This document shows positions 6,586 to 35,269 of a stretch of 64,000 nt of DNA, piece after piece (the first letter of the stretch is position 1; each line of letters opens with the position of its first letter). Location: positions 1-64,000 of the IMG/VR virus record IMGVR_UViG_3300017774_003070, one strand, 5' to 3'. The notes below the pieces were generated by a model. The model searched no databases. It had not been told where the DNA came from and saw only the letters and a program-made list of their open reading frames with translations. This DNA comes from a virus. A program made the position numbers and the translations under genes.

Positions 6586-6771
6586 ATGATACTTCAATTC
6601 TTTACTTACAAACACTTACCAGAGCATCTTCAAGAGGTTAGTAAACCTTTCTGTGAGTTAGCTAACTGGATCAGTGAGAACTTGGAACCTAATTCAGAAA
6701 CATCTACTGTACTTAGAAAGCTGTTAGAAGCTAAAGATGCAGCAGTCAGAGCAAAACTATACAAACCATGA
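6586..6771 (+). CDS. Small helical-hairpin phage protein (HLP..LQEVSKPF...LRKLLEAKDAAVRA family)
   Basis: Motif recalled as widespread in phages; two predicted helices. Confidence 0.7.
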   Translation: MILQFFTYKHLPEHLQEVSKPFCELANWISENLEPNSETSTVLRKLLEAKDAAVRAKLYKP

Positions 6772-7325
6772 AAATAGGATTTGGTGCAATCATAGGAGCA
6801 TTATTAATGTTCTTTGGATTCAAGCAATGTGAACAACCACAAGAAGTACGTACAATAACTAAAAAGATCAGTGTACCTACTTACATTGAGAAGGTAACTA
6901 CAGTCAAAGTACCAGTTACTAAGATCAAGTACATTAGATTGTATGATACAACTACAAGTTATGTGCATGATACGCTAAATCAGCTTGTAGAAGTTGTTTC
7001 TTACGACACTACAAAGTCTCTTGCTGTTATACCTTATAGTGACAGTCTGGTTAACATCTCAGACTCAATCACTCTTACAGGTACAATCTTAGATTTCAAG
7101 CGTAAGGTCATAGTAAAGGAAAGACAACCTGATACTATCACTGTGACTAATCAAGTGACTAAGTATTTCAGAGGAATCAAAGGTTACATAGGAGCAGATT
7201 CTGATTTATTGCAACCTATATTTGGACTTTCCTATGATTCTAAAAAGTTTCAAGTATCTTTGGGCTACAGACCTGTTACTAAGGTTGTAGAAGCAAGACT
7301 TTTCTTACCACTTATCAAACTATAA
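6768..7325 (+). CDS. Membrane-anchored exported protein (possible spanin-like or lipoprotein)
   Basis: N-terminal hydrophobic segment then QC; Thr/Val-rich body with six D(S/T)(L/I/T) motifs; C-terminal amphipathic beta-strands. Confidence 0.6.
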   Translation: MKIGFGAIIGALLMFFGFKQCEQPQEVRTITKKISVPTYIEKVTTVKVPVTKIKYIRLYDTTTSYVHDTLNQLVEVVSYDTTKSLAVIPYSDSLVNISDSITLTGTILDFKRKVIVKERQPDTITVTNQVTKYFRGIKGYIGADSDLLQPIFGLSYDSKKFQVSLGYRPVTKVVEARLFLPLIKL

Positions 7326-11041: not shown

Positions 11042-11686
11042 ATGATTACTCAAAAACTAATAACTAAGAATAGACCTTTCAAGAAGCTTAAAGAACTACG
11101 AGGTATTGTAATTCACTGGACAGCTAATACACGTAAAGGTGCTAATTCTCAAGCTCACTATCTGTACTTTAATGCAGCTAACAGATCGTCCTCTGCTCAC
11201 TATTTTGTAGATGATAAGTCTGTACTACAGTTGATCCCAGATGATGAAGTAGCATGGCATGTAGGTGATAGCATTAAGTTAGCTAGTCTACCACTACGAG
11301 CTAAATATGTACCTAAAGGTGATAATCCTAACAACTACTTTATTGGTATTGAGATGTGCATGAATGAGGATTCTAATCAGCAAAAAGTACTTGACAATAC
11401 TGTGCAGTTGGTTACTGAACTCATGCTCAAATACAAGCTTACTAAAGATCAAGTTGTACGTCACTATGACATTACAGGTAAAGATTGTCCTAAAATGTTT
11501 GTACCACTTGTTGTTAATGGTGTCAAGTTAGAACATGCTTGGTTAGCTTTTAAAGATAAGTTACCGATAACACCAGAAGTACCACAAGCATACAGTATCA
11601 CGCAAGAACAAGAAACTAAATTAACTACATGGGAACTGTTATCACTGAGTCTACACCAAATCTTAGCCTTTATTCGCAAGATGTAG
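11042..11686 (+). CDS. N-acetylmuramoyl-L-alanine amidase (Amidase_2 endolysin)
   Basis: IVIHWTA, SAHYFVD, AWHVG, IGIEMC, RHYD..GKDCP Zn-amidase motifs. Confidence 0.9.
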   Translation: MITQKLITKNRPFKKLKELRGIVIHWTANTRKGANSQAHYLYFNAANRSSSAHYFVDDKSVLQLIPDDEVAWHVGDSIKLASLPLRAKYVPKGDNPNNYFIGIEMCMNEDSNQQKVLDNTVQLVTELMLKYKLTKDQVVRHYDITGKDCPKMFVPLVVNGVKLEHAWLAFKDKLPITPEVPQAYSITQEQETKLTTWELLSLSLHQILAFIRKM

Positions 11687-14600
11687 ACTGGATAAAAATT
11701 GAGAATTTGAAAAGTATTTTGTCACAGTTTGAACCTGTACACTTACATCCTGATGATCCTCAATATAAAGTTCAGTGGAATGGTCTACGCACTAAACTAG
11801 TTGATGGAATCTTCTTTCCTCAGTTTGGTAAAGTAAGGTATGTTCCTGGTAGACTAGGTTTCTATGCTAAGTTCTCAACTATTGTAGATACAAAGGACAA
11901 GGTACGTTATGAGATTACTCCTGATATTAGAGACTTAGAGTTTCATTTTGCATACTATCTTACTGAAGCTCTTGGATTTTCAGGTTTCTCTAATGATGAC
12001 CGATATACTTGTGACAGACGTATTCATAAGTTCAATAAGCTCAAGATAGACCAGCAATCAGAACTCATTACTAGCAATGGTAAGCTTAAGGAATTTAGAG
12101 AGCCAAGAGAATACCTATTCAGCCTTCACGATGATGATTTAGGACAACCATTATACAAGAATGATGCCTCTAATTTACTAGTTCTAGGTGCAAGAGGAGG
12201 TGGGAAGGCTACACGTTGTTATGAAACGGTATACAAATCTACAGGAAAGTCTACAATAGGAGAGCTTGTTGCAGGAGATCAAATTTATGGATCAGAAGGA
12301 GAATTAATAAACGTACTTGATGTCCACCCTCAAGGTGTTACAGATGTATATAAAGTTGAATTCTCAGATGGGCGAAGCCTAGTTACTCATCCAGATCATT
12401 TATGGAAACTTAGAAAGAAAAAGAATCCTGTGAGTACCATTGAAATGCTGGAAAAAGGATTATTCTATGAACACAAGAAATCTGGTAAATCTTACAAGTT
12501 TCAAGTTGAGCAATGTAAAGAAGTACAGTATCCAGAAAAAGAGTTGCCTATACATCCTTACATTCTAGGAGCTTTACTTGGAGATGGTACAATGACTACC
12601 AAAACTCCTAAGTTAGCGAGTAGCGATGTAGAAATACTCGACAGGTTTAAAGAGTTACTTCCTGAGTATGAGTTTAAGTATGACGAGTCTACTACTAACA
12701 ATTATACCATTAAGTATCTAGGAGATGAGAGGATATTTGTAAAAAGAAAAGTTAAAGGTGATTTCTGGACACATCACAACCCTTTACATACAGAGATAAA
12801 GAAGCTTGAACTAAACGTAACTTGCAAAAACAAATTTATACCTGATATTTACAAGTATGGTTCTGTTGAACAACGTTACGAGCTTGTACGTGGATTAATG
12901 GATACTGATGGTTCTATCAATAAGGAAGGATCAATTGAGTTTACAAATACTTGTGGTACATTACTTCAAGATTTGAAAGAAGTACTACAAAGTCTGGGAA
13001 TTAGATGTTCAGTAGGTGAAGATGATAGATCTGATCAATCTCATTTTATAAAAGGTAAGGAGTATCAAAGAGGTAAATACTCAAGACTGTATATCAATAC
13101 TTCTAAAGATATATTCTTCTTACCTAGGAAAAAAGAAAGACTCAGATCTAGACAGAAAGAAGGATTTGTATCTATTGTAAACATTGAAAAACTACCTGAG
13201 CAAGAAGAGACTACTTGTATCACAGTAGATGCTCCAGATCATTGCTATCTTACCACTGATTATCTTGTTACTCATAACTCGTATACGTTCTCATTAATGG
13301 CTGTAAAGTACGAGTTAGCATTTCATGGTGCTAGGAATTCAGACAAACCTATCGGTAAGACTTCTGTAGAAATTGGTTCTGGACAAGTATCTAAGTCTTC
13401 TGAATTAATTGACAAGATTGTACTTTCTAACGAGTGTTTGAAGAAGGAGAAGTTTGGAGCATATGGAGAAGAAGGTGATGACGACTTTGAACCTTGTCCT
13501 TTCTACATGTGGATGGATGGATCTTTTCGGGTCAACAATCAGCAAAATCCTTGGATACAGCAAAAGACAGTTAAGAAAGGTAAGTCTTGGAAAAAGATTG
13601 GCAGAAAGTCTACTCTTTATCACTCCTCTTACTCTACTAATAAAAAAGAAGGTGCTGAAGCCTCTGCTGGTGGTCGTAGAAACATGATTGTTTACGAGGA
13701 GATTGGTCTTACTGCTTTGATCAAAGAGGTGTGGGGGTCAAACAATGCTGTTGTACGTACAGACTCTGAACAGTATGGTTCTCAAATTGGTATTGGAACG
13801 TCTGGTAACATTGAATTGATTCAGTCAACTAAGCACATCTTTACTCATCCAAAAGATTACAACTGTCTGATCTTTGGAAAAGGTAATGGATTCTTTCTTC
13901 CTGCCCCACTGACTAACAAGGACTTTAAGGATGAAAATGGAAATACTGATCTTGATGAAGCTTACGACTACTACATAAAGAGACGTGAAGAGGCTAAGAT
14001 GGCTTCTGATCCACAAGTACTCATTGCAGAAAGGATGAACTATCCACTGTCTATTGAAGATATGTGGTTAGGAGGTTCATCAGGTTATCTTCCTGACAAA
14101 GAAGCTGAATTACGTGAGAAGGAATTGATAGCAGGAAACCTTTACGAAAATATTGGACAAGCTGTAGAATTAGTCTGGGATAGCAAAGTAGCATCAGGAG
14201 TAACTTACAGAATCAAACCTAAGTCAGAAGCTAAACCTATCTACAATTGGCCTCTTAGTCCTAATGATCCTACTCATGGTGAGATAATGATTTACATTCA
14301 TCCTGAGAAACTAAAGGTTAATGGTATACTTCCTAACGATGCTATTATCTTTTTACATGACCCTTACGTATCTGATGAATTAGACAAAGGAGGATCACTT
14401 GGAGCTTCTTACGCAATTGTGAATCCTAAATATGAAAGCTTTGGTTTACCTTCGTATCAGATAGCAGCAACTTGGATTAGCAGACACCCACATGGAGTAG
14501 ACGCTTACAATGAAGAGTTTGAGAAGCTGATACAGTTCTATGGTAATCCAGTAAGAAATGTATGGTATGAAGCCAACCGAGGTGATAGATTTAAAGGACA

Positions 14601-14985
14601 TATTACCAAGAAGAAAAAGAACTTCCTGTTATGTCTTAGACCTCAGTTTGAACAAGGCCAGTACATCTACACACGTAATGCTACACAGACAGGTTATGTA
14701 GTATCTAATCAGATTGCTAAAGTGACACTGCTTGATGGTTTACGTGATCTACTGCTCATGGACGTTGGTGGTAAACTACTTATAGAAACTATACCTTGCT
14801 TGTTTACAATAAAGCAAATACGACAATTTAAAATGGATGGAAACTTTGACGGCGTATCAGCTCTTCAGGGACTTCCACTAGCAATAAAAGAAATAGAGCA
14901 TTATACAAGTAATCGGCAGCAGACTGGAGTACTTCATTCAATTTCAAAAAACTTGGTAAAAAGGCTGCGACCTAATTACACATAA
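11629..14985 (+). CDS. terL: Terminase large subunit containing an intein
   Basis: Walker A GARGGGK/S split by an intein; Walker B IVYEEIG; GTSG coupling motif; RNase H-like C-terminal domain (HDPY, YEANRG, NFDGVSA); followed by portal. Confidence 0.92.
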   Translation: MGTVITESTPNLSLYSQDVDWIKIENLKSILSQFEPVHLHPDDPQYKVQWNGLRTKLVDGIFFPQFGKVRYVPGRLGFYAKFSTIVDTKDKVRYEITPDIRDLEFHFAYYLTEALGFSGFSNDDRYTCDRRIHKFNKLKIDQQSELITSNGKLKEFREPREYLFSLHDDDLGQPLYKNDASNLLVLGARGGGKATRCYETVYKSTGKSTIGELVAGDQIYGSEGELINVLDVHPQGVTDVYKVEFSDGRSLVTHPDHLWKLRKKKNPVSTIEMLEKGLFYEHKKSGKSYKFQVEQCKEVQYPEKELPIHPYILGALLGDGTMTTKTPKLASSDVEILDRFKELLPEYEFKYDESTTNNYTIKYLGDERIFVKRKVKGDFWTHHNPLHTEIKKLELNVTCKNKFIPDIYKYGSVEQRYELVRGLMDTDGSINKEGSIEFTNTCGTLLQDLKEVLQSLGIRCSVGEDDRSDQSHFIKGKEYQRGKYSRLYINTSKDIFFLPRKKERLRSRQKEGFVSIVNIEKLPEQEETTCITVDAPDHCYLTTDYLVTHNSYTFSLMAVKYELAFHGARNSDKPIGKTSVEIGSGQVSKSSELIDKIVLSNECLKKEKFGAYGEEGDDDFEPCPFYMWMDGSFRVNNQQNPWIQQKTVKKGKSWKKIGRKSTLYHSSYSTNKKEGAEASAGGRRNMIVYEEIGLTALIKEVWGSNNAVVRTDSEQYGSQIGIGTSGNIELIQSTKHIFTHPKDYNCLIFGKGNGFFLPAPLTNKDFKDENGNTDLDEAYDYYIKRREEAKMASDPQVLIAERMNYPLSIEDMWLGGSSGYLPDKEAELREKELIAGNLYENIGQAVELVWDSKVASGVTYRIKPKSEAKPIYNWPLSPNDPTHGEIMIYIHPEKLKVNGILPNDAIIFLHDPYVSDELDKGGSLGASYAIVNPKYESFGLPSYQIAATWISRHPHGVDAYNEEFEKLIQFYGNPVRNVWYEANRGDRFKGHITKKKKNFLLCLRPQFEQGQYIYTRNATQTGYVVSNQIAKVTLLDGLRDLLLMDVGGKLLIETIPCLFTIKQIRQFKMDGNFDGVSALQGLPLAIKEIEHYTSNRQQTGVLHSISKNLVKRLRPNYT
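12208..13278 (+). mobile_element. Class 3 intein (357 aa) with LAGLIDADG homing endonuclease
   Basis: Starts at Ala after GK, ends THN|S; W in block B (THPDHLW), C in block F (TTCITVD), T in block G; LAGLIDADG helices LGALLGDG and VRGLMDTDG. Confidence 0.9.
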
Positions 14986-21931: not shown

Positions 21932-23293
21932 ATGTTACGTAAAACACAGAAACCGATGCAAGAGTATTTTTTGGTTGCCACTGGTAATCAAGCTATGCGC
22001 ACATCTGGTTCATTCTTTGGTTCTGGTAATGCACTCAACCTCACTAACGGTCAGCTTGGTGTAATTCGTCCAGAACTTCGCACTTACATTGACGGTACTT
22101 CTGATGCAGTATCTAACGGTGTATTGCAAATTCAAATCCTCCAAGGTACTAGCAAGTCAGCTAACACGACTTCAGTAATTGGCTGGTCAGGTCTTGAAAC
22201 CCCTGCTTACAATTCTTCTCCAGTAATTCCAGCTAACAGTATCTTGCAGGTAACTACTAATCTTCCTGTAGTTGGTACTCTTTCTAGCTTGCTTTACAGC
22301 TCTTTGTCTGCCCCTACTGCTGACACTAAGTATGCATTGAATGTTAAGATGCGTTCAGTTCGTAAGGACAAGAAGTTTGGTGGAAACATTGATCAATTCT
22401 CGTCTGTCTACACTTCTGGTGCAACTGCTCCAACTCAAGCTGTAGTTCTGAGTAACTTGATCGCTGGTTTGAACAAGTACAGCAAAGCCAATAACTTGAT
22501 TCCTCCTTTTCAATCCCTGGGTAACATCAAAAATGTAGTTGCAATTGGTATTGACACTGACGGTTCTGGTTCTGGTCAAGCAATTGGTACTCTGGTAACT
22601 GGAAACACAATCAACGTAATGACTGACGGCACTAGCAACATGTCTATTACCTTGACTAAGGAAATGATCCAGACCATCAAAGGTTGGATTGATTCTACTC
22701 CACTGACTGCAACTTCCGAGATTGTAAACGTTACTACTGCAAGCACTGGTTCTGCTGATGTTGATTCTGTAATTGTAATGGGACTTGATCACGATCTGTC
22801 TCTTGCTTATGACGACATCCAACAAGTTCGTGTAGATGTAACTGGTACTACAATCACTTGGCCTGATGGTACTTACACTGAAACTACTTTGACTAACGCA
22901 ATCGAGAGCACTGGTTCTGGTCGTTACTTCAAAATCTGGTTTGACGAACGTGCATTTGGTCAGCATGGTAACGAGCAACTTGCTGGTTTCACTGATACAA
23001 TTATCCGTCCATACAGTGCCATTGACGAGACTCTGAGCTACACTGCAACTGCTATTGATTTCTTGCAAGAAGAATTCATCAACAACGATCTTTCTCACCA
23101 GAATAACCGTGTTTGGATTTTGCTTCCTGCTACTGATGACAGTGCAACTGCAACTGGTGCTGATGGGATTACTACTTCGACTTCTGCTTCAACGACTGTA
23201 ACTGCCTTGAATACAATTCTTGGTGCATGGTTGTTGAGCAACGATAAATTCACCATTAACGGTGATGGCTCAAGTTCTGCTCTGTTTGTTTGA
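21932..23293 (+). CDS. Auxiliary capsid (decoration) protein
   Basis: 453 aa, Thr/Ser-rich, highly expressed codon bias, followed by a terminator; crAss-like synteny. Confidence 0.6.
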   Translation: MLRKTQKPMQEYFLVATGNQAMRTSGSFFGSGNALNLTNGQLGVIRPELRTYIDGTSDAVSNGVLQIQILQGTSKSANTTSVIGWSGLETPAYNSSPVIPANSILQVTTNLPVVGTLSSLLYSSLSAPTADTKYALNVKMRSVRKDKKFGGNIDQFSSVYTSGATAPTQAVVLSNLIAGLNKYSKANNLIPPFQSLGNIKNVVAIGIDTDGSGSGQAIGTLVTGNTINVMTDGTSNMSITLTKEMIQTIKGWIDSTPLTATSEIVNVTTASTGSADVDSVIVMGLDHDLSLAYDDIQQVRVDVTGTTITWPDGTYTETTLTNAIESTGSGRYFKIWFDERAFGQHGNEQLAGFTDTIIRPYSAIDETLSYTATAIDFLQEEFINNDLSHQNNRVWILLPATDDSATATGADGITTSTSASTTVTALNTILGAWLLSNDKFTINGDGSSSALFV

Positions 23294-24666: not shown

Positions 24667-27600
24667 ATGAATAAGCTATTATTTCTTTTACTATTGCTGC
24701 TTCCACTATCCTTAATTGGACAAGTGGAATCTCAGTTTAATGGGACACTGAATGTATTCTCTGGTTCACGAATTGGATCTACAAATACATTCACTATCTC
24801 TGGTATTTATTCAAATACTACAAGTCAGTATACATCAGCTAATTCAGCTACAGGTGACATTGTACAAGTGCAGTCAGGCTCAAGGTTCTACTGGTTACAC
24901 ATTTACTCAATAGCGTCTAATGCAGGAGGTGTAATTACTTGTAATGTACGAGACAGCTCTAGTACACTGACTACATTTCCATTAGGGAACTGGAACATCT
25001 TCAGACCTACTGTGAACAGACGATTACCTCTTACTGCTGATGGTATCTCTAATGCAGCTAGAGCTTCTGCATTTAATACACTAGCTTTACGTGTAGATCA
25101 GATTGCTAGTTCTGGTTCTAGTTCAACTAACTGTGAGCAGACTATAACTAAGACAGCTCATGGATTTAGAAAATGGACACCAATCTTCTGGAATGGTTCT
25201 ACTTATATTAGACCTACAGCAGACAGTTTAGTACCTGACTACATTGTAATAGACAGCTTGACCGCTAATACATTTAAGGTTGCTAGTTGTGGAACTTATA
25301 CAACTACTCTGAGTAATGGACTTTACTGGTTTACATCAGCTAACCCTGGTTACAGTTTGACTGCGGATACTACTAAGGTTCCTCTTTTTCAAGTACTTAA
25401 TACTAAACTGATTCTTGATCCTATTGTAGGGTTTAACTTGATGTCTGGTAGTGGTTCAGGTACAGGAATTACAAATGGAGACAAAGGAGAAATTACAGTT
25501 ACAGATGATGGAGCAACCTGGACTATTGACAATGGAGTAATAAGCAATGCTAAACTAGCTACCAACGCAGTTGACTCTACAAAAGCAGCTAATCTATCTC
25601 CTAATGATTTAGCACAGACCGGGGCAAACACAAATGATGTGCTTACGTGGACAGGTAGCAAGTATGCACCAAGACCTTCGATCGGTGGAGGTTCTGGGAT
25701 TACCGCTTTAACGGGAGATGTAACAGCATCGGGCACAGGAAGCGTTGCGGCTACGATTGCTAATAACTCTGTGACCTCTGCTAAAATAGCAAGTCAAACA
25801 CTTGATTCAACTGATTTAAAAAACAGAGGGACTACTCTTTTGAAATTGGCTCAAAGTGGAGCTACAAATGGGCAAGTCCCAGTTTATAATTCTACGTCCG
25901 GTAATTGGGAAGCTGGGACTGTATCAGGCGGTAGTGGAAGCCCAGGTGGTTCAACTACTCAGATTCAGTATAATAATGCAGGAAGTTTTGCTGGAGAATC
26001 TGGGATTGTTCGTTCTGGCACTGGATCAATAACTTTATCCGGCAAGTTAGTTTCTGGAGACACAGTAAGAGCAAAGACTTTATTGGCTAGAGGATTGTTG
26101 ACAGTTGGAGACAATTTTACCAGTACGCTCGACACTATTACTTTTTTTGGGAATAGTATCACAGAAGGGTATTGGGCTTTCCCTACGGTTCCTACTGCTA
26201 GGTGGACAACCCAAACTAGCTATTATTATGGTTCTTTCGAGGACAATAAAGGTATATCAAATACTAGAATGTCTGGTGGAACCAATGCTATGGAGGGCCG
26301 TACTGCTGAAATTCCAACCTATACAGCTACTCGTAGATATTTGGTTTTTGACTACGGTGTGAATGATGCGAATAACGCAGTGGACACTACTACATTTAAG
26401 ACGGCTTTTGCAGGGGTTATTGACGCAGCCACCGCAAAAGGATGGCCTACTACAAGAATAGTAATTGCATCCCCTACGCTCACTGGTATTGTATCAGGTT
26501 GTGTTAGATGTAGGGATTTTGTATCTGCTTCAAAAAATGTAGCCCTTGCGAAGTCTACAAAGTATGTAGATATGTTCAATGGAATGCTTACTGAAGGCGG
26601 TAGAGCTACTATACATCCTGATAGCGTTCACCCTACAGTGTTTGGGCATAAAGTTGCGGCTGAGGTATTTGTAAACAGTTTGAATGATACAGACTTGAAA
26701 GGAACAATTCGATCCAACCAAAGCATAATTGAAAGAAAATTAACAGTAAGAGGAGTTTCTGATTTTGCAGCAAGAACAAACTTTGCATCTGATGTATATT
26801 TTACTGGTGAAGTGAAATCCTCAATGAATTTAAGTGCAGGAGGGTTATCGAATATATTTGGAGAAGCTACAGTATCCCAGCAAAAATGGGGGTTATTTCG
26901 ATCTGGTAATTCTCGATATGGGATGGGTATAAGCACCAGCGGCGGCATCTTTTCTGATCATTACTTTTCATCTGCTGCGACAGCTTATCGAATAGGAACG
27001 ATGAGTAGCAGCGATGGCACTACATACACTCCATTATTCAGAGTCCTAGCAAATGGTAACGGTGATTTAACAGGTACATTATCGGTGGGGGGGTTATCTG
27101 TAACTAATGCTACAACTTTTTCAGGAGGGGTTACAATAACAGGCGATGCAGTAGTTACTCAACAAAGGTTAGCTATTTTTCGATCTGGTAATTTTCGCTA
27201 TGGCATAGGCATGGGTAGCCCTGATGGTTCTAATTTCTTTACTGACGTATACGGTTCTTCAACTGGCTCAGTTCGATTAGGGTTCATCTCTACAGGTGAC
27301 GGAGCTACTTATAATCCTGTTATTTCTGTTTGGTCTAATGGTAGAACGTATATTGGCACATCTCCAATTGCGCCTACAGCAATATTACATTTAAAAGCAG
27401 GAACTGCCACAGCATCCACAGCTAGTTTGAAAATTGATGAAGGAACGCTTTTGACAACGGCTGAAAAAGGTGCGGAAGAATTTGCAAGTGGTAAAAGGTA
27501 TTTTTCCCCTGCAAATTCGACTAGATACGAATATGCTTTAACGCTTAGAGGCTCCGCAACACTAGACTTCGGAAGCACAGCAGCAAATGGTGAAAGCGAT

Positions 27601-27792
27601 CTAACCATTACGGTTACGGGCGCTGCTGATGGAGACGTTGTAAGTCTAGGTGTTCCAAATGCTAGTGCAACGACAGGAGTATTTTTTGCCTGGGTGAGCG
27701 CAACCAATACGGTAACAGTTCGTTTTCACAATACAAGCGGAGGATCAACTGACCCTGCATCAGGAACATTTAAAGTAACTGTAACTAAATAA
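24667..27792 (+). CDS. Fibre/spike-like protein with Sec signal peptide and SGNH esterase domain
   Basis: MNKLLFLLLLLLPLSLIG|Q; SGNH blocks FFGNSIT, KG, GVND, DSVHP (about 26137-26685); fibre repeats. Confidence 0.75.
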   Translation: MNKLLFLLLLLLPLSLIGQVESQFNGTLNVFSGSRIGSTNTFTISGIYSNTTSQYTSANSATGDIVQVQSGSRFYWLHIYSIASNAGGVITCNVRDSSSTLTTFPLGNWNIFRPTVNRRLPLTADGISNAARASAFNTLALRVDQIASSGSSSTNCEQTITKTAHGFRKWTPIFWNGSTYIRPTADSLVPDYIVIDSLTANTFKVASCGTYTTTLSNGLYWFTSANPGYSLTADTTKVPLFQVLNTKLILDPIVGFNLMSGSGSGTGITNGDKGEITVTDDGATWTIDNGVISNAKLATNAVDSTKAANLSPNDLAQTGANTNDVLTWTGSKYAPRPSIGGGSGITALTGDVTASGTGSVAATIANNSVTSAKIASQTLDSTDLKNRGTTLLKLAQSGATNGQVPVYNSTSGNWEAGTVSGGSGSPGGSTTQIQYNNAGSFAGESGIVRSGTGSITLSGKLVSGDTVRAKTLLARGLLTVGDNFTSTLDTITFFGNSITEGYWAFPTVPTARWTTQTSYYYGSFEDNKGISNTRMSGGTNAMEGRTAEIPTYTATRRYLVFDYGVNDANNAVDTTTFKTAFAGVIDAATAKGWPTTRIVIASPTLTGIVSGCVRCRDFVSASKNVALAKSTKYVDMFNGMLTEGGRATIHPDSVHPTVFGHKVAAEVFVNSLNDTDLKGTIRSNQSIIERKLTVRGVSDFAARTNFASDVYFTGEVKSSMNLSAGGLSNIFGEATVSQQKWGLFRSGNSRYGMGISTSGGIFSDHYFSSAATAYRIGTMSSSDGTTYTPLFRVLANGNGDLTGTLSVGGLSVTNATTFSGGVTITGDAVVTQQRLAIFRSGNFRYGIGMGSPDGSNFFTDVYGSSTGSVRLGFISTGDGATYNPVISVWSNGRTYIGTSPIAPTAILHLKAGTATASTASLKIDEGTLLTTAEKGAEEFASGKRYFSPANSTRYEYALTLRGSATLDFGSTAANGESDLTITVTGAADGDVVSLGVPNASATTGVFFAWVSATNTVTVRFHNTSGGSTDPASGTFKVTVTK

Positions 27793-27793
27793 C

Positions 27794-29557
27794 ATGAAGT
27801 ACATACTCATATTTTTACTTGGATTGATTACATTTCAAGTAAATGCACAAGGTAGCAAAATAATAGGTTCTACAAGTACAGCTAGTGGTGATGTACAAGG
27901 TACTTACCCTACTATCTACGTAAAACCTAATGTCATCAATCGTGCTAACTTAACTCAAACATTACGAGACAGTCTTACACGATTTAGAAAAGACACTTCT
28001 ATCACTATAGGTTCTGGTACAACTAACTATGGTTCCTTAGCGAATACATTTGGTAAGTACAGTAGAGTTAGAATTACTTGCTTGTTACCTACTGCTGGCA
28101 CTGCATCTGTAATTCTACCAAGTCTTGCTGACACACTCAAGAATACTGAGATTAAAGTAACCCTTTACGCACAGGACTCCTCTGGTTCTGTAATGAATGT
28201 AGTAGGATTTGATGGATTTGCATTTTGGTTTAATGGAACTAATTTACAAGAACTTGATCCTGTCATCTACATTTCCAATAGAAAGACCATTACACTAAAA
28301 GGAATTTACCAAGCCTCTGATTGGATGTGGTTATCTGAAGTATCACGAGATTGGTTAGGTACTGAGTTGTATGACATTGCAGCTACAGGTATAACAGCAC
28401 TTACAGGTGACGTTACAGCATCAGGTACAGGATCAGTTACTGCTACAATTGCTACGTCAGCAGTTACATCTTCTAAGATTCTTGATGGGACTATTGTATC
28501 AGCAGACGTTGCTAGTCAAACTGTAGATTCACTTGACATTAAGAATAGATCAGTCACTACAGTCAAGTTACTAGATGGTGCAGTTACATCACTCAAAGTA
28601 CTAGACAACTCACTTACTGGCTCTGATCTTACATTCTTAACTCTTCGTGCAGGAACTACTTCTGATGCAAGCTTACAGTTAACTTCAGGATCAGATAAAA
28701 CTACACTGACTGGTGGAGAAGTGCTCTACAATGGTTCACGATTTGCAGTTGGTATTGGATCTTCCAAGAGACGTATAGCTGTAATGAATGATGTTACGCC
28801 AAGCAACGGGCAACTACCAATTGGTAATGGAACTGACTTTACAGTAGCAAACATTACTGCTGGATATGCTCAGACTGTAACTAATGGTTCTGGTAGCATT
28901 ACAATCTTACCTGACACTACACTTGTCATTCCTTACATTCCTTCTGCTGAGATAAGCAATGGAACTAGAGATGGTTACTTTAGAACACAGACCTCATTTG
29001 GTCATCAGTACTACAATGGTGGATTTAGAATCTTTAATGCTAGTGTAGCTTCTACATCTGGATCTACTGGACTTAGTGTATCTGATCTTGCCAATACTTA
29101 CAGATCATCTATTCAAGCTAGTCTTACTTCTGCTAATGTACCTACATTCTCAATCTTTGCAGTAGGAGCCGAACGTGGAGATAAGAGTGCTACATTTGAA
29201 GAAAAAGGAGCTACTATTCCAGTACTCTACAATTCAATTGGAGCTAATTCACAAGCTGTAACTACTTATCAAATAGATGGAGAAACTTCTATTGAGTACA
29301 TTACTAACTCTACACCAACTAACGTAACTTTACCTGAGATTGTAGGAACAAGCATTACTGCCAATAAAGTAGGAATAGGTTATACAATGTGGGTTGCAGT
29401 TAACTCATCTGTAGGTAAGAACATCAATGCAGCAGGATCAGATGTAATTATCAGACATGGTTCTACAAGTACTGTAACTACATTTACAACTACAGGTGGA
29501 ACTTACTACTTGAAGAAGTTTGTAGCATTAGGATTAGATGTTTGGGGAGAATTCTAA
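27794..29557 (+). CDS. Fibre-like protein with Sec signal peptide
   Basis: MKYILIFLLGLITFQVNA|Q; ALTGDVTASG and VTxxKxxD repeats. Confidence 0.7.
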   Translation: MKYILIFLLGLITFQVNAQGSKIIGSTSTASGDVQGTYPTIYVKPNVINRANLTQTLRDSLTRFRKDTSITIGSGTTNYGSLANTFGKYSRVRITCLLPTAGTASVILPSLADTLKNTEIKVTLYAQDSSGSVMNVVGFDGFAFWFNGTNLQELDPVIYISNRKTITLKGIYQASDWMWLSEVSRDWLGTELYDIAATGITALTGDVTASGTGSVTATIATSAVTSSKILDGTIVSADVASQTVDSLDIKNRSVTTVKLLDGAVTSLKVLDNSLTGSDLTFLTLRAGTTSDASLQLTSGSDKTTLTGGEVLYNGSRFAVGIGSSKRRIAVMNDVTPSNGQLPIGNGTDFTVANITAGYAQTVTNGSGSITILPDTTLVIPYIPSAEISNGTRDGYFRTQTSFGHQYYNGGFRIFNASVASTSGSTGLSVSDLANTYRSSIQASLTSANVPTFSIFAVGAERGDKSATFEEKGATIPVLYNSIGANSQAVTTYQIDGETSIEYITNSTPTNVTLPEIVGTSITANKVGIGYTMWVAVNSSVGKNINAAGSDVIIRHGSTSTVTTFTTTGGTYYLKKFVALGLDVWGEF

Positions 29558-29603
29558 AAACCATTGAATCCTTTGGACTTTCATAATTTTCAATTCTTAA
29601 AGC

Positions 29604-29777
29604 ATGATAGGAACAATATTTGGAACCAATAGATCAGGTGGGTTAACTATTCCAGGAGCTTACAGTAATGATGCTGAGGCTGCTAGTAATGGTGTACAAG
29701 TAGGGCAACCTTACTATGTGCTTGTATCTATGGACTATGGTATTCCTACTGGATTTGTCAGAATTAGAGAATCATAA
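29604..29777 (+). CDS. 57-aa small fibre-associated protein (not in the ORF track)
   Basis: MIGTIFGTNRSGGLTIPGAYSNDAEAASNGVQVGQPYYVLVSMDYGIPTGFVRIRES; the YxxDAxAxxxGVxVGxxY motif recalls fibre-terminal modules. Confidence 0.65.
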   Translation: MIGTIFGTNRSGGLTIPGAYSNDAEAASNGVQVGQPYYVLVSMDYGIPTGFVRIRES

Positions 29778-29786
29778 AACAGAGCA

Positions 29787-32700
29787 ATGAAAAACATACT
29801 TATTATACTAGCTCTTCTTTTGCCTATCACTGTATCTGCACAGTTGCTTAACTCATACGGTGTAGTAGAGATAGGAAGTTCATTCCCGATGTCCTCTACT
29901 AGAGGAGCTAAGTTTGCATACAGAACTACAGATTCGTCATTCTACAGATGGATTGTAGGTAATACTTGGGTAAAGGTTGTGGAACCTAGTATTGAACCAG
30001 ACACACTCTACCTAAAACAGCTCTCTGGTACGACAGCCTTAGTTGACGGTGACACAATTGACATCTCAACTTATCTTCTAAAGGCAGATACAACATCCTT
30101 CCTAGCCCCTTATATTAGACTAGCTGGATATGGATTACTTAAATCAACTAATACACTTCGAGTAGATACAAGTCTTATTGCAACACGCTTCTATACAAAC
30201 TCTACATTCCTTCCCATCCTCGGCGGCACCCTTACCGGAACCACTGGGAACGGCTTTTTAGGACTATTGCCACAAAGTTCAACTCCAAGCACACCAGCGT
30301 CAGGGTTTCGATTCTTTGCAAACGGTGCGCATAATTTAGCACTTCGAGATCGAAACGGGTGGATTACGACGTTCGATATTTCCGCAACTGGTAATCGTGA
30401 TTTTGCGTATCCGTCTATTGGTGGCACCTTTGCACTAGGCACGGGGACGGCTACACGAATACCGATTTGGACAAATGCCAACACGCTCGGAGATTCACCG
30501 ATTCTTTACAACAGCACCACTAAACGGACAACATGGGATAGCCCAGGCGTGATCGACATCCCAATGGGAACAGATGCAGAACGACCTAGTCCTGCGGTTA
30601 CGTCGGATTTCTGGTACAACACAACCGGAAATGGTATTGAATGGTACAACGGTAGTAGGTGGGCTAAGGGGTTGGAAAGTACAGCAAATAGGTTTGCAAC
30701 AGGTAGTTTGATTTTTGTAGATGCAAATGGGCAAGCGACGCAAAATAACACGAAACTATTTTGGGACAATACAAACAACAGACTTGGAATTGGAACAGGA
30801 TCACCTACAGCCCCCCTTTCCATTTTTTCCACTGGTGCAATTGGGTTTCGGATTTTTCCAAGTCCCACAGATATTAACTGGTGGCGATTGGGGTTGACAT
30901 CAGGCGGGGGTTTTTTGGAGTTCAATCCCTCTGATGTTAATATTTCTAACCGATTATCACTGCCCGAAACGGGGGTAGCTCGATTTAGGAGTGGTAACCA
31001 AAATCCACAATCTTCGCATTTTTTTAACACAAATTACAGGATGTATTTTAGTGGCGGGGTTGGAAATGCAAACGGAGGCGGTGGTGATGATGGAGGTGAT
31101 TTATATTTTATGGGTGGCGATTCCCCCAACTCGGATGCAGGAGTAACAGGGGGTGATATATATATTCAAGGTGGGCAGGCATACACTAGAGGCGCTGCCT
31201 TTGCTGGAAATGTTATATTGAATTGGAGTAGCTGGGGCAATGTAGGAGTCGGGACAAGAACCCCAGGACAAGAAATGGATATAAATGGTGATCTCTACGT
31301 AAGGGACAGTATTCGATTAGGCACTGTTCCGCTTATGTCGTCAGCTACAAAAATAGCTGTGCTGGACGCAAACAATTGGATAGGGTATCGAAACTCAAAC
31401 ACAATCGGAGGGGTGTCAGACTCGCTTTATAAAGCTGGATTTAGTCTTGTATATCGAAATAACGCAGGAACAAGACGAGACACAATACAGGAATCGTTTT
31501 TCAATCGATACGGCTCGATGATTGCTATTCCATTCACAAGCGATGTCACAAACTATAATACAAACAGCAGCGCGAACGTATTTGTTGGAACTATTTTTAG
31601 CTCAGATACAAGCGCGACAGACTTAACTTTATTAGATTCGGATGTATCAATCGGAGGAGGGTCTTACATAGAAAACAAAGCTGGCAATTTCGGTGTCACT
31701 CAAGTTGGTCATGCTGCGTCCGTTAACGGTATATCAACTAGGGCAACAGTCGTCGGGTTTACTTCTTCTGCCTCAAATGCAATTAACTCCACATCGATAG
31801 GCGTAAACAATACGATGTCTGCTGGTGGTGCACTTGCTTTTGGGAATTTTAACACGATAAGCGGGGGTGGTTCTGGTGCATTTGGATCGGTTCATAATAT
31901 CACACAAGCAAATAGATACCAGTACGGGAATGGATCAAGTGAAAACTCAATAAGGCATTTCTTTTACGGAAACCTGAATGTGGGTTCTGACTCTTCCTTT
32001 TCCTACAATAACACCACGGATGTTTTCAGGCTTTCAACCTATGGCACAGGCACAAAAGAAGCCGCCGACCTTTCCAAAACCCAATCCAACTACATCGCAG
32101 GATTTGCCACAGATGGTACAGTTACAGAGATGGAAGGCGTACAAGTATCCTCTAATAAAAATCTCTTACTAGGCACAACCACCGACGTGCCCACATCAAT
32201 TCTTACAGCACGTTCAACCACAAAGAGTTCATCACCTTTCCCTTTTCACACTACAGCAGAATCAAATGCTATTACAGGAGTAGGCGGTAACTTTGAATGG
32301 GTAACAGATGGTATCGGGCCAGGATTTAGATGGCATAACGGAACGAGGGGTGCTTATGGGCTGGAATCTACCTTTGCACGGGGGACGGCTACACGGGTTC
32401 CGTTTTTTGATGCCAATGGGCAAATTACAGACAACAGCGGAATTACTTTCCAAAACCCTGGAACAATAGTAGGGACTGCTCATAGCTCATTGCGTGTCAC
32501 AACCTCAGCAACCGCTACCGCAAATAATCAATTCATAACAGGGACAATCTTTACCACTACGAACAGCCCTGGCGCTTTCACGGGTGTTAGAAATCACGTT
32601 GCTGCATTCTTAACAGACGACGCAACAGGCAGTACAATTGCAATAGGAAGGCCGTACAGCAATAACTTTTTTGCCACAATTACTTCTGATTTTAGCACAC

Positions 32701-34586
32701 GAAATTTCATTTTCGATTCTGGAAACAGTGGCGGCAACTTGATTTTCAGGAAAGCAGGAACGCAGGTGCTTTCAGTTGGCTCACCTCGTTTAGCTTATGC
32801 AGGTTCTTTTTTTAGTTCCGCAACCGAATCGTTGTACGGGTTAAATACTTCGTTTGCACAAGAGACGGCTTCATCCGCTTATTTTTTAATGCGCGAAGGT
32901 ACGGCGGGTTATAAGGCCGCGTTTGGTCACGATGGAAACGGAAGCGCTACAATTTATGCTCAACGAGCAAATACAAACTTCGTGGCAGCGGATATGAAAC
33001 TTCGTTTATCTGGTGCGACGGGATATGCAGAGTTTCTAAACAACACAGCAGGGGTTTTACTTGGAGGTGGCACCACTGCACAAACGCCAACAGAGGCAAA
33101 CGGGTTGATTCGCTACAATTCAGATAGCACATTATACCAAATCTACCAAGGCGGAGCAAGGGCATTTATCGCAACTCGTGCCTACGTTCGTTCTTCGGCA
33201 TTAAATATAGGAAACTCTAACTTAACATTAACAGGAAATCGAACCCTTTCAAGCGGTGGATTCAGTTTAACCTTATCTCCAAAAACAACAGTTTCAGATA
33301 CTTTTTTACTTCCGCTTGGAAAGGTAAAAACAAATACCTATGCTCCGATTATGGGTAAAAATGTGAATTGGGCTGAGAATGGAAGTATAATGTATGGGGA
33401 GAACATACGTAGCGATTCAACTGGATTTGGGGCAGGGCAGAATGTATTGTTCGGATTAAACCTAATGCAAAAAGCAAGGGCATCAGGTGGTAGATTTATG
33501 CTTTTTGGTGACAACATTCTAAATGGAATCACTTCTGCATTTAATGTGGTGGGGATTGGCATTCAAGTTGCTGACCAATCTACAACAGCAGGGAGCGACT
33601 TTTTTGTTGGCGGTTCCGTTGTGGCTCGGTATGCAACAAGCCTAGATCGTGCGGTTATACTTGCGTCACGAAGCTTCAATAGGGTTGCCGGAGTGAACTT
33701 AACCCAAACCGTTGCATTTGGGTACGGGGCAGGCTCGACAAGCACAGAAAGATCAGCAGGAGGAACTCACTACGGGTACCTACAATTACAATCGCTAGTA
33801 TCAGGGGATCAAATTTCCACATACGGGTATTTAGCAGGGCGAGTAATTAAACGCGGCACAAACCTTTCTTTCATAGGCAACTACACGGGCGCAACTGATA
33901 CCATGTTTTCCGATGCTTCCGCAATTGGGAACTATGCCGCAATTGGGCAAAATCAAGCAATCACAATCGGTGCAATCAATGGGGTAAACAGTGCGACGTA
34001 CGATGCTAAAATAGGTATAGGCACAACAACCCCGTCTGAAAAATTGCACGTCGTAGGTAATATTAGATTTGGAAGTTATGGCACAGGAATAAAAGAAGCC
34101 ACCGACCTTTCCCTCAGCACCCCCACGTACATTGCTGCATTCGCACCTTCCGGCACAGGGCAAGGAACAATATTAGACTACAGAATAGCTCGTGACACCT
34201 TCATTGAAGACGTTACTTTATTCTCAGTAGGAACATTATTAAACACCTGTCAAGAATTAACTATAGTTTCTTCAATGACAGTACTTGCGAGTTCGGATCA
34301 AGAGATCAGATTCCCGGACGCTTCAGATGTATTCCGTGGAAGAAAGATTATCGTATACAGTAAGAAGAAAGACGCTGGACTATATCTACCTAAAATCAAA
34401 GTAGCAGGTGGTGTTTCAAGATTGTACTTTACAACCAACCCCGCAGTAGGAGGAACTGATCCATCTGATCAATCTACATTAACTATTGATGACAGTACAT
34501 GGTCAGATCATGGAACTACATTTGAATTCACTTGCTTGAAGATTGACAATACCCCAGCATATCGTTGGGTACTGAAGCAAAGGTGA
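29787..34586 (+). CDS. Long fibre/adhesin-like protein with Sec signal peptide
   Basis: MKNILIILALLLPITVSA|Q; G(I/V)GTxxP repeats, YadA-head-like xxIG/xxFG repeats, internal duplications. Confidence 0.75.
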   Translation: MKNILIILALLLPITVSAQLLNSYGVVEIGSSFPMSSTRGAKFAYRTTDSSFYRWIVGNTWVKVVEPSIEPDTLYLKQLSGTTALVDGDTIDISTYLLKADTTSFLAPYIRLAGYGLLKSTNTLRVDTSLIATRFYTNSTFLPILGGTLTGTTGNGFLGLLPQSSTPSTPASGFRFFANGAHNLALRDRNGWITTFDISATGNRDFAYPSIGGTFALGTGTATRIPIWTNANTLGDSPILYNSTTKRTTWDSPGVIDIPMGTDAERPSPAVTSDFWYNTTGNGIEWYNGSRWAKGLESTANRFATGSLIFVDANGQATQNNTKLFWDNTNNRLGIGTGSPTAPLSIFSTGAIGFRIFPSPTDINWWRLGLTSGGGFLEFNPSDVNISNRLSLPETGVARFRSGNQNPQSSHFFNTNYRMYFSGGVGNANGGGGDDGGDLYFMGGDSPNSDAGVTGGDIYIQGGQAYTRGAAFAGNVILNWSSWGNVGVGTRTPGQEMDINGDLYVRDSIRLGTVPLMSSATKIAVLDANNWIGYRNSNTIGGVSDSLYKAGFSLVYRNNAGTRRDTIQESFFNRYGSMIAIPFTSDVTNYNTNSSANVFVGTIFSSDTSATDLTLLDSDVSIGGGSYIENKAGNFGVTQVGHAASVNGISTRATVVGFTSSASNAINSTSIGVNNTMSAGGALAFGNFNTISGGGSGAFGSVHNITQANRYQYGNGSSENSIRHFFYGNLNVGSDSSFSYNNTTDVFRLSTYGTGTKEAADLSKTQSNYIAGFATDGTVTEMEGVQVSSNKNLLLGTTTDVPTSILTARSTTKSSSPFPFHTTAESNAITGVGGNFEWVTDGIGPGFRWHNGTRGAYGLESTFARGTATRVPFFDANGQITDNSGITFQNPGTIVGTAHSSLRVTTSATATANNQFITGTIFTTTNSPGAFTGVRNHVAAFLTDDATGSTIAIGRPYSNNFFATITSDFSTRNFIFDSGNSGGNLIFRKAGTQVLSVGSPRLAYAGSFFSSATESLYGLNTSFAQETASSAYFLMREGTAGYKAAFGHDGNGSATIYAQRANTNFVAADMKLRLSGATGYAEFLNNTAGVLLGGGTTAQTPTEANGLIRYNSDSTLYQIYQGGARAFIATRAYVRSSALNIGNSNLTLTGNRTLSSGGFSLTLSPKTTVSDTFLLPLGKVKTNTYAPIMGKNVNWAENGSIMYGENIRSDSTGFGAGQNVLFGLNLMQKARASGGRFMLFGDNILNGITSAFNVVGIGIQVADQSTTAGSDFFVGGSVVARYATSLDRAVILASRSFNRVAGVNLTQTVAFGYGAGSTSTERSAGGTHYGYLQLQSLVSGDQISTYGYLAGRVIKRGTNLSFIGNYTGATDTMFSDASAIGNYAAIGQNQAITIGAINGVNSATYDAKIGIGTTTPSEKLHVVGNIRFGSYGTGIKEATDLSLSTPTYIAAFAPSGTGQGTILDYRIARDTFIEDVTLFSVGTLLNTCQELTIVSSMTVLASSDQEIRFPDASDVFRGRKIIVYSKKKDAGLYLPKIKVAGGVSRLYFTTNPAVGGTDPSDQSTLTIDDSTWSDHGTTFEFTCLKIDNTPAYRWVLKQR

Positions 34587-34729
34587 GTCGGGGGCAATGC
34601 TGAAAAGCAGACCTCTGTACCTCAATGGATGCTTAACTACAAAGGAACTGCAAAGTGGAAATATTGGATACAAACAGGCATAATTGAAGAATCAAACGGA
34701 ACTTTCAAACTAGGAAAACTTAAACAATT

Positions 34730-35269
34730 ATGAAGTATTTACTACTGGTACTTTTACCAATCTTCTCCTACGCTCAACAAGACTCTATAGTGTATGAGAA
34801 ACGTGACACTCAATGGTACAAAATTACTGTACGTATTGAAGGACTTAAAAAGACAACAGTTGAAGAACCCTATACTACAGTTGACAGTCTTATTAAAAGT
34901 ACTCTACTAAACAATTTAGTAGATGCTGGTAGACAATACCGTGCTTTTAAATTAGCAACTGAGGAACAAGAGAAAGACTATCTTCTCAAGTTACGTCAAG
35001 CTGATAGACAGTACAGAACGCTCTACACTACACGTCCTAATCTCGACTCTCTCAGCAACGCTAAACAGTTAGTTGGTACTTGGTTATTAAATGGTGTAGA
35101 AATAAGCATAACTAAACAACTTAGATTGTTAACAGCAAGTATTAACTTTGTCTCTGAGGATGTATTCTGGGTTACTAATAACGGACGTGAATACTTCTTT
35201 AAACGAGGTAGAAGCTGGGTATCAGATAAACGTAAACTAGAACCTGAAACTACAAGATCAATTCGATGA
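34730..35269 (+). CDS. Exported protein with Sec signal peptide (possible fibre chaperone)
   Basis: MKYLLLVLLPIFSYA|QQ; directly after the fibre gene. Confidence 0.7.
   Translation: MKYLLLVLLPIFSYAQQDSIVYEKRDTQWYKITVRIEGLKKTTVEEPYTTVDSLIKSTLLNNLVDAGRQYRAFKLATEEQEKDYLLKLRQADRQYRTLYTTRPNLDSLSNAKQLVGTWLLNGVEISITKQLRLLTASINFVSEDVFWVTNNGREYFFKRGRSWVSDKRKLEPETTRSIR

Follow-up and report, generated by a model that had tools for sequence, protein, structure and literature searches.

Fibre-like genes and export signals in the structural arm

The window, as the whole 64-kb stretch of DNA analysed here is called, is the first part of the 103.8-kb IMG/VR virus record IMGVR_UViG_3300017774_003070, for which completeness was estimated at 96%. 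It contains a block of fibre-like genes (positions 24667 to 35269) whose predicted products carry signal peptides together with an excess of D-(S/T)-(A/I/L/V/M/T), the sequon of the general O-glycosylation system of Bacteroidota. PHROG profile matches were obtained for the large terminase subunit (TerL; 11629, 2e-35), the portal protein (14996, 8e-39) and the major capsid protein (MCP; 18419, 7e-25). The MCP shares approximately 28% identity with the MCPs of gut crAss-like phages across one third of its length, and open reading frames (ORFs) of 3166 and 1681 amino acids downstream constitute a giant virion-type protein block as found in Crassvirales-like phages. Homologous TerL, portal and MCP genes and the giant-protein block mark the phage, which is uncultured and of freshwater origin, as a distant relative of crAss-like phages; the window is its putative structural arm.

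The first gene of the block (24667..27792, + strand) encodes a fibre- or spike-like protein of 1041 amino acids with a signal peptide predicted to end at LIG|QVESQ, which is retained in the homologues L003, L054 and P0061. A GDSL/SGNH esterase domain was identified at residues 493-663 (Pfam PF13472, 2.3e-16). The nine sequons of this protein are unevenly distributed, with 9 observed against 3.26 expected in residues 23-660 and 0 against 1.79 in residues 661-1041; a recount places them at residues 186-652, in agreement with a preliminary description of this DNA that had assigned all of them to the first 660 or so residues. Those at residues 186, 196, 234 and 303 are present in 3/3 homologues. 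An uncultured phage from spring water encodes a hypothetical protein with 48% identity to the C-terminal end (residues 955-1041).

The second gene (27794..29557, + strand) encodes a fibre protein of 587 amino acids with a predicted signal peptide ending at VNA|QGSK, a match to tail-fibre family PHROG 892 (6e-7) and a central fibre repeat of the AVT..K type at residues ~195-375. Its sequons at residues 59, 113, 245 and 374 are kept in 10/10, 9/10, 4/8 and 3/10 homologues, respectively. The third large gene (29787..34586, + strand) encodes a fibre protein of 1599 amino acids with a predicted signal peptide ending at VSA|QLL and ten sequons. A conserved N-terminal domain (the first ~140 amino acids, 60-74% identity) is followed by a variable distal part. 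The sequons at residues 72, 89 and 101 lie within this domain and are retained in 41, 33 and 29 of 47 family members; an AlphaFold2 (AF2) model of the domain was poor, with a predicted local distance difference test score (pLDDT) of 52. A 57-amino acid ORF without a signal peptide (29604..29777, + strand) separates the second and third fibre genes, and is found at the same position in the related locus L003 (11739-11915), with a similar ORF in L002.

Directly downstream of the fibre genes, a protein of 179 amino acids (34730..35269, + strand) is encoded with a predicted signal peptide ending at FSYA|QQDS and sequons at residues 18, 52 and 106. Its 46 homologues share 55-93% identity. Sequon 18 is present in 25/25 aligned members, the third residue being solely I, V, T or M, whilst sequons 52 and 106 are present in 21/25 and 24/25. 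In the AF2 model (pLDDT 80.7) all three sites are exposed: one lies on the free N-terminus of the mature protein, one occupies a helix N-cap and one belongs to a loop. No fold match to this protein was obtained with Foldseek or Atlas; a role as a fibre chaperone is conceivable.

A fifth protein, of 185 amino acids, is encoded elsewhere in the window (6768..7325, + strand). It appears lipoprotein-like, since an N-terminal hydrophobic stretch is followed by Cys21 (FFGFKQC|EQPQE), which is invariant among 54 homologues of 52-87% identity. Its six sequons all fall within residues 60-124 and are kept in 36, 52, 51, 48, 54 and 52 of the 54 members with in-class substitutions; 0/2000 shuffles of the sequence reached six. 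A spanin and an exclusion factor are among the roles it could have.

Signal peptides were called by an in-house heuristic combined with conservation among homologues. The four N-termini of the fibre block have the classical n/h/c layout, with cleavage predicted at LIG|Q, NA|Q, SA|Q and YA|Q. Signal peptides ending in a small residue followed by Gln are kept, while the sequence drifts, in 45/45 homologues of the 1599-amino acid protein, in 14/14 close homologues of the 587-amino acid protein with full N-termini and in 38/45 homologues of a further set. Signal peptides are also encoded by the corresponding genes of the related loci L002-L004, L052-L054 and L056. Gln immediately after the signal peptidase I cleavage site, termed the Q-rule, is specific to Bacteroidetes (PMC5837995, PMC10653852); a crude form of the pattern was found in 50/86 signal-peptide proteins of Niabella and 10/31 of Treponema. 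Searches of Pfam and NCBIfam revealed no C-terminal sorting domain of the type IX secretion system (T9SS; Por_Secre_tail or type B C-terminal domain) in the exported proteins.

Two further small proteins with export signals are encoded outside the window, one of 113 amino acids with a signal peptide ending at SYS|Q (68878-69219) and one of 105 amino acids with a lipobox-like ..HFTSC (72291-72608, - strand). The same three-gene block of signal-peptide fibres occurs in a second phage lineage, represented by L052 (1794-3546) and L056 (1478-3248), in which a GroEL-like chaperonin gene and a small co-chaperonin-like gene lie upstream and the gene order differs.

Sequon excess in exported proteins and its conservation

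The strict sequon was defined as D-[ST]-[AILVMT] (D[ST]X), with the expectation calculated from the composition of each protein and checked by shuffling. Counts by eye of 9, 4, 10, 3, 6 and 4 for the proteins at 24667, 27794, 29787, 34730, 6768 and 21932 in the preliminary description were reproduced exactly, against expectations of 5.0, 3.3, 6.5, 0.56, 0.76 and 2.8, and the contexts it had quoted (AVDSTK, TLDSTD and TVDSLD) are present. The last of these proteins, a Ser/Thr-rich protein of 453 amino acids without a signal peptide (21932..23293, + strand), served as an internal control and showed no significant excess (4 against 2.83, p 0.31). Within the window, the four signal-peptide proteins contain 26 sequons against 15.4 expected, or 32 against 16.2 with the 6768 protein included, and all other proteins contain 40 against 48.4. 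For the whole genome the corresponding figures are 26 against 15.6 for five signal-peptide proteins and 64 against 81.4 for all others. The rate ratio of exported to other proteins is thus 2.12 (conditional binomial p 0.0016), rising to 2.47 (p 6e-5) with the 6768 protein, so that the enrichment proposed for signal-peptide proteins survives correction for composition. The residue following D[ST] is A, I, L, V, M or T in 32/50 cases in exported proteins and 64/210 in the others (Fisher p 1.7e-5).

The contrast was also apparent in relatives of the phage, where it rests on seven related loci outside the window (the viral and metagenome scans yielded 3 and 6 loci, respectively). The 17 exported proteins of the seven loci contain 110 sequons against 53.3 expected, a ratio of 2.06, with D ranking 1/20 among first residues; the reversed motif is at 0.86 and D[ST][other] at 0.55. 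For the 54 proteins of these loci that are not exported the ratio is 1.07 (rank 11), and the Ser/Thr-rich ones among them contain 17 against 16.6 (1.03). The 1599-amino acid protein has 58 homologues, and its 47-member family contains 405 sequons against 211 expected (1.92, rank 1 of 20 a[ST]X classes), all 47 members having a ratio above 1. In the de-replicated variable parts of this family, 137 were found against 95.5 (1.43; Markov 1.48, p 1e-5). Close homologues of the 587-amino acid protein yielded 82 against 42.2 (1.94, rank 1), with the reversed motif at 0.64 and D[ST][other] at 0.37. Depletion of D[ST][other] extends across the related exported sets (0.37-0.61). Asp is conserved at 0.94 in sequons of the N-terminal domain of the 1599-amino acid family compared with 0.34 for other Asp residues; the difference is small in the 587-amino acid family (0.68 against 0.53) and the 1041-amino acid family (0.58 against 0.43). 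Effect size and motif specificity are consistent across the related sets. Once relatives are considered, the enrichment holds up as genuine, depends on the orientation of the motif and is limited to exported proteins.

The fibre repeat itself was examined as a source of the excess. The central repeat of the 587-amino acid protein has 1723 homologues, many of them giant bacterial proteins. In distant repeat homologues the D[ST]X ratio is 0.53 for proteins with a Q-type signal peptide, 0.80 for those with another signal peptide and 0.76 for those with none, and V[ST]X and G[ST]X are favoured instead. The fold does not explain the excess, because the motif is under-represented in distant proteins that share the repeat. 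At residue 245 (QTV-DSL-DIKN), distant homologues have TTA, TSA or TTS, with a sequon in 12/451 aligned segments, compared with 9/16 phage-clade homologues. At this position, therefore, the suggestion that sequons stand where generic fibre repeats have VT was borne out.

General O-glycosylation in Bacteroidota acts on nearly every accessible D-(S/T)-(A/I/L/V/M/T) motif and requires Sec export; motif occupancy is near full, and engineered, foreign and cross-species motifs on exported proteins are glycosylated (PMC12871550). The same observed/expected measure applied to non-cytoplasmic proteins shows the motif to be raised mainly in Bacteroidota, although not in every species (PMC12871550). For calibration, bacterial genomes reached via relatives of the phage endolysin were divided strictly into exported or anchored proteins and the rest. 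Exported or anchored proteins of Niabella (Chitinophagaceae) contain 214 sequons against 129.8 expected (1.65, rank 1), with the reversed motif at 1.15 and D[ST][other] at 0.62; the remaining proteins, a set that still includes gene fragments, give 1.31. The corresponding ratios for exported or anchored proteins and the rest are 0.83-0.84 and 0.93 in Saprospiraceae, 1.11 and 1.19 in Treponema and 0.73 and 1.06 in Pelobacter, and Firmicutes signal-peptide proteins give 0.86. The exported proteins of the phage therefore bear the signature of one Bacteroidota exported proteome, since they match Niabella and not the non-Bacteroidota sampled; the Saprospiraceae genome lacks this signature as well. 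The earlier statement that the Bacteroidota system modifies this sequon on extracytoplasmic proteins agrees with the review. One ORF or fragment from a Niabella metagenome-assembled genome (MAG; L217, 18758) contains 16 strict sequons in 345 amino acids against 1.6 expected.

Probable host affiliation of the phage

Apart from its likely source sample, the stretch is present in freshwater metagenomes of two or more studies. Activated-sludge runs gave small word shares (0.05), which were not used as evidence. Megablast and tblastn searches with the region and the three fibre proteins against cultured phages returned nothing useful, and no cultured relative was found at the DNA level. The nearest diderm relatives of the endolysin belong to Chitinophagales, Niabella and Saprospiraceae. 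An endolysin 86% identical to that of the phage was found on L060, a contig of 7 kb in a 'Chlamydiae' MAG. L060 probably derives from a phage and was misassigned during binning, and it is not taken to point to a host. Clues to a likely host in Bacteroidota are the Q-rule signal peptides, the crAss-like core genes, the relatives of the endolysin and the freshwater habitat.

No tRNAs were identified in the window. The TerL ORF (11629-14985) encodes 1118 amino acids, of which only residues ~180-554 are matched by terminase profiles, leaving some 560 extra C-terminal residues, and its 5' end shares 58 bases with the endolysin gene.

Probable host O-glycosylation and competing explanations

These data are best explained by a Bacteroidota host that glycosylates the exported phage proteins, a reading considered reasonably probable. 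As the motif occurs at about twice the chance rate and is kept in evolution, as in exported proteins of the host phylum, the proteins are most likely genuine glycosylation substrates. Motif excess and signal peptides support each other, because the excess marks exported proteins in this phylum. The four proteins of the fibre block and the 185-amino acid protein would enter the periplasm via their Sec-type signals, and those of the fibre block, three large proteins and one small partner, would expose Gln as the first mature residue in accordance with the Q-rule. In a Bacteroidota periplasm they would then meet the general O-glycosylation machinery; both translocation and glycan attachment are steps that we infer from the sequence. 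Given near-full occupancy and the modification of foreign motifs, glycosylation would be the expected outcome in that compartment. The glycan would be entirely host-made, since no glycosyltransferase was found among the phage proteins scanned, as the preliminary description had also reported for the window.

The extension of this explanation to glycosylated virion fibres is attractive but tentative. A role in the virion is suggested by fibre architecture, position in the structural arm and the failure to observe other fibre-like genes: the proteins combine traits of receptor-binding fibres, namely a conserved N-terminal domain, recombining distal modules (e.g. in P0061), a fibre repeat and an esterase, and no fibre-like gene lacking a signal peptide was seen elsewhere in the genome. 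Exported fibres would have to join particles formed in the cytoplasm at or after lysis. It is possible, if doubtful, that the fibres of this clade of crAss-like phages are matured outside the cytoplasm: Sec would export them, they would receive a pyroglutamate cap and O-glycans from the general system of the host, and they would join particles only once the envelope is breached at lysis. Camouflage, stability and host-range tuning as purposes of such a coat are speculation.

Several observations weigh against host glycosylation and its extension to virion fibres. In the window alone the excess lacks motif specificity, which emerges solely when homologues are added. The four mature window proteins show ratios of 1.89 for P[ST]X, 1.51 for G[ST]X and 1.49 for the reversed motif compared with 1.62 for D[ST]X, and the first-order Markov-corrected p is 0.07. 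The homologue sets are related by descent and their p-values are inflated accordingly, and in the variable parts of the 1599-amino acid family the reversed motif also reaches 1.43 (Markov 1.19). The Saprospiraceae, a candidate host group, lack raw enrichment in exported proteins in the one genome sampled, and the Bacteroidota -7 promoter element was not enriched in the phage sequence (63 observed against 67 expected). Cysteine counts of 5, 1, 2 and 0 in the exported proteins provide no signature of periplasmic disulfides. In the model of the 179-amino acid protein, 2/3 sequons are predicted at or just before helix starts, where Asp-Ser is structurally favoured too. Particles of tailed phages assemble in the cytoplasm, and we know of no mechanism by which periplasmic fibres are added to them.

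The cytoplasmic assembly of virions speaks for a role in the infected cell. The proteins may be exported, and probably glycosylated, to act in the periplasm or at the surface of the infected cell, with receptor destruction or masking (by the GDSL esterase), superinfection exclusion or lysis control as candidate functions and glycosylation as the normal fate of exports. This alternative is rather unlikely, but carries appreciable weight. With no lipobox, T9SS C-terminal domain or barrel, the fibre-block proteins would be soluble in the periplasm; the fibre repeat is common to many large bacterial signal-peptide proteins, and in ΦcrAss001 the fibres proven to belong to the virion lack signal peptides. 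Porphyromonas gingivalis phages, moreover, encode proteins with Q-rule Sec signal peptides for which a function in altering the host envelope has been suggested (Matrishin et al. 2023, PMC10367356). Such a role is harder to reconcile with the architecture of receptor-binding fibres, with a location in the structural arm ahead of small membrane proteins, an order shared with ΦcrAss001, and with the fact that no alternative fibre-like gene without a signal peptide was seen in the genome. The approximately 10 kb occupied, one tenth of the genome, would also be a large investment for accessory factors.

Two other explanations dispense with glycosylation altogether. The excess of D-[ST]-hydrophobic could be a structural habit of the clade, arising from turn or helix-cap motifs in fibre shafts. 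The three sites of the N-terminal domain are nearly invariant, as structural residues would be, and the helix-start sequons of the 179-amino acid protein, the raised reversed motif and the Saprospiraceae result point the same way. Against this, five or more unrelated exported proteins show the excess, a small globular one and a lipoprotein-like one among them, and it is not seen in proteins that these phages do not export. The motif is under-represented in distant proteins that share the fibre repeat, and its third position is filled by I, V, T or M, residues that are chemically dissimilar yet all allowed by the motif. The depletion of D[ST][other] and the same signature in exported proteins of Niabella are further arguments against a structural origin, which is considered improbable. 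An artefact of composition in Ser/Thr-rich proteins, compounded by post hoc choice of proteins, would account for control motifs raised equally in the window and for the Markov-corrected result, and the 6768 protein may have been picked for its many sequons. However, independent loci and families show an approximately 2-fold excess with D at rank 1/20, the Ser/Thr-rich non-exported controls remain near unity, and every member of the 1599-amino acid family exceeds expectation. This explanation is largely refuted and is regarded as very improbable indeed.

The proposed host O-glycosylation of the exported proteins can be compared with a number of known systems. In ΦcrAss001 (NC_049977), gp21-gp26 form a block of large genes for fibres, spikes and hydrolases, downstream of which lie small membrane and lysis genes, as in the present phage; unlike the proteins described here, those of ΦcrAss001 lack both signal peptides and a sequon excess (16 against 13.4, 1.19, rank 7), and no sequence similarity between the two groups of fibres was detectable. 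The membrane-anchored 'lysis regulatory protein' gp27 of ΦcrAss001 (25093-25695) contains 4 sequons against 0.3 expected, a parallel to the 185-amino acid protein, and it may be general for Bacteroidota phages that their lysis proteins outside the cytoplasm are substrates of glycosylation. The P. gingivalis phage proteins are likewise phage-encoded, Gln-exposing and read as an adaptation to Bacteroidota export. They are, however, the products of small prophage genes, whereas those described here are large, fibre-like, located in a structural arm and accompanied by a measured sequon excess; the term 'glycosyl' does not occur in the text of PMC10367356. With exported proteins of Bacteroidota, as represented by Niabella, the phage proteins share the motif, the first rank of D, an observed/expected ratio above 1 and the depletion of D[ST][other]. 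They differ in being phage-encoded, fibre-like and known from sequence alone, and the review of that system does not mention phages (PMC12871550). Phages have been described as not typically glycosylated (PMC11256854), and in the known exception the enzymes are encoded by the phage. Mycobacteriophages such as Che8 are tailed phages with glycosylated structural proteins according to the work cited there (Freeman et al. 2023, cited in PMC11256854). As far as that citation describes them, their glycosyltransferases are phage-encoded and act in the actinobacterial cytoplasm, whereas here the host would carry out the modification in the periplasm.

On a modest reading, the motif excess is a marker, obtainable from sequence only, of phage protein export in a Bacteroidota host, and could therefore aid host-phylum prediction and the annotation of uncultured phages. 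If the extension to virion fibres is true, these would be the first parts of a tailed-phage virion to be produced in the periplasm, and the phage would be the first with a coat of protein glycans made by its host. Part of the virion would then be drawn from a periplasmic pool, and the usual picture of tailed-phage morphogenesis would change. Each propagation host would stamp a species-specific outer glycan on the particle, which could alter adsorption, resistance to proteases, the way in which other bacteria and the immune systems of animals recognise the particle, and the behaviour of Bacteroidota phages in the gut and in water.

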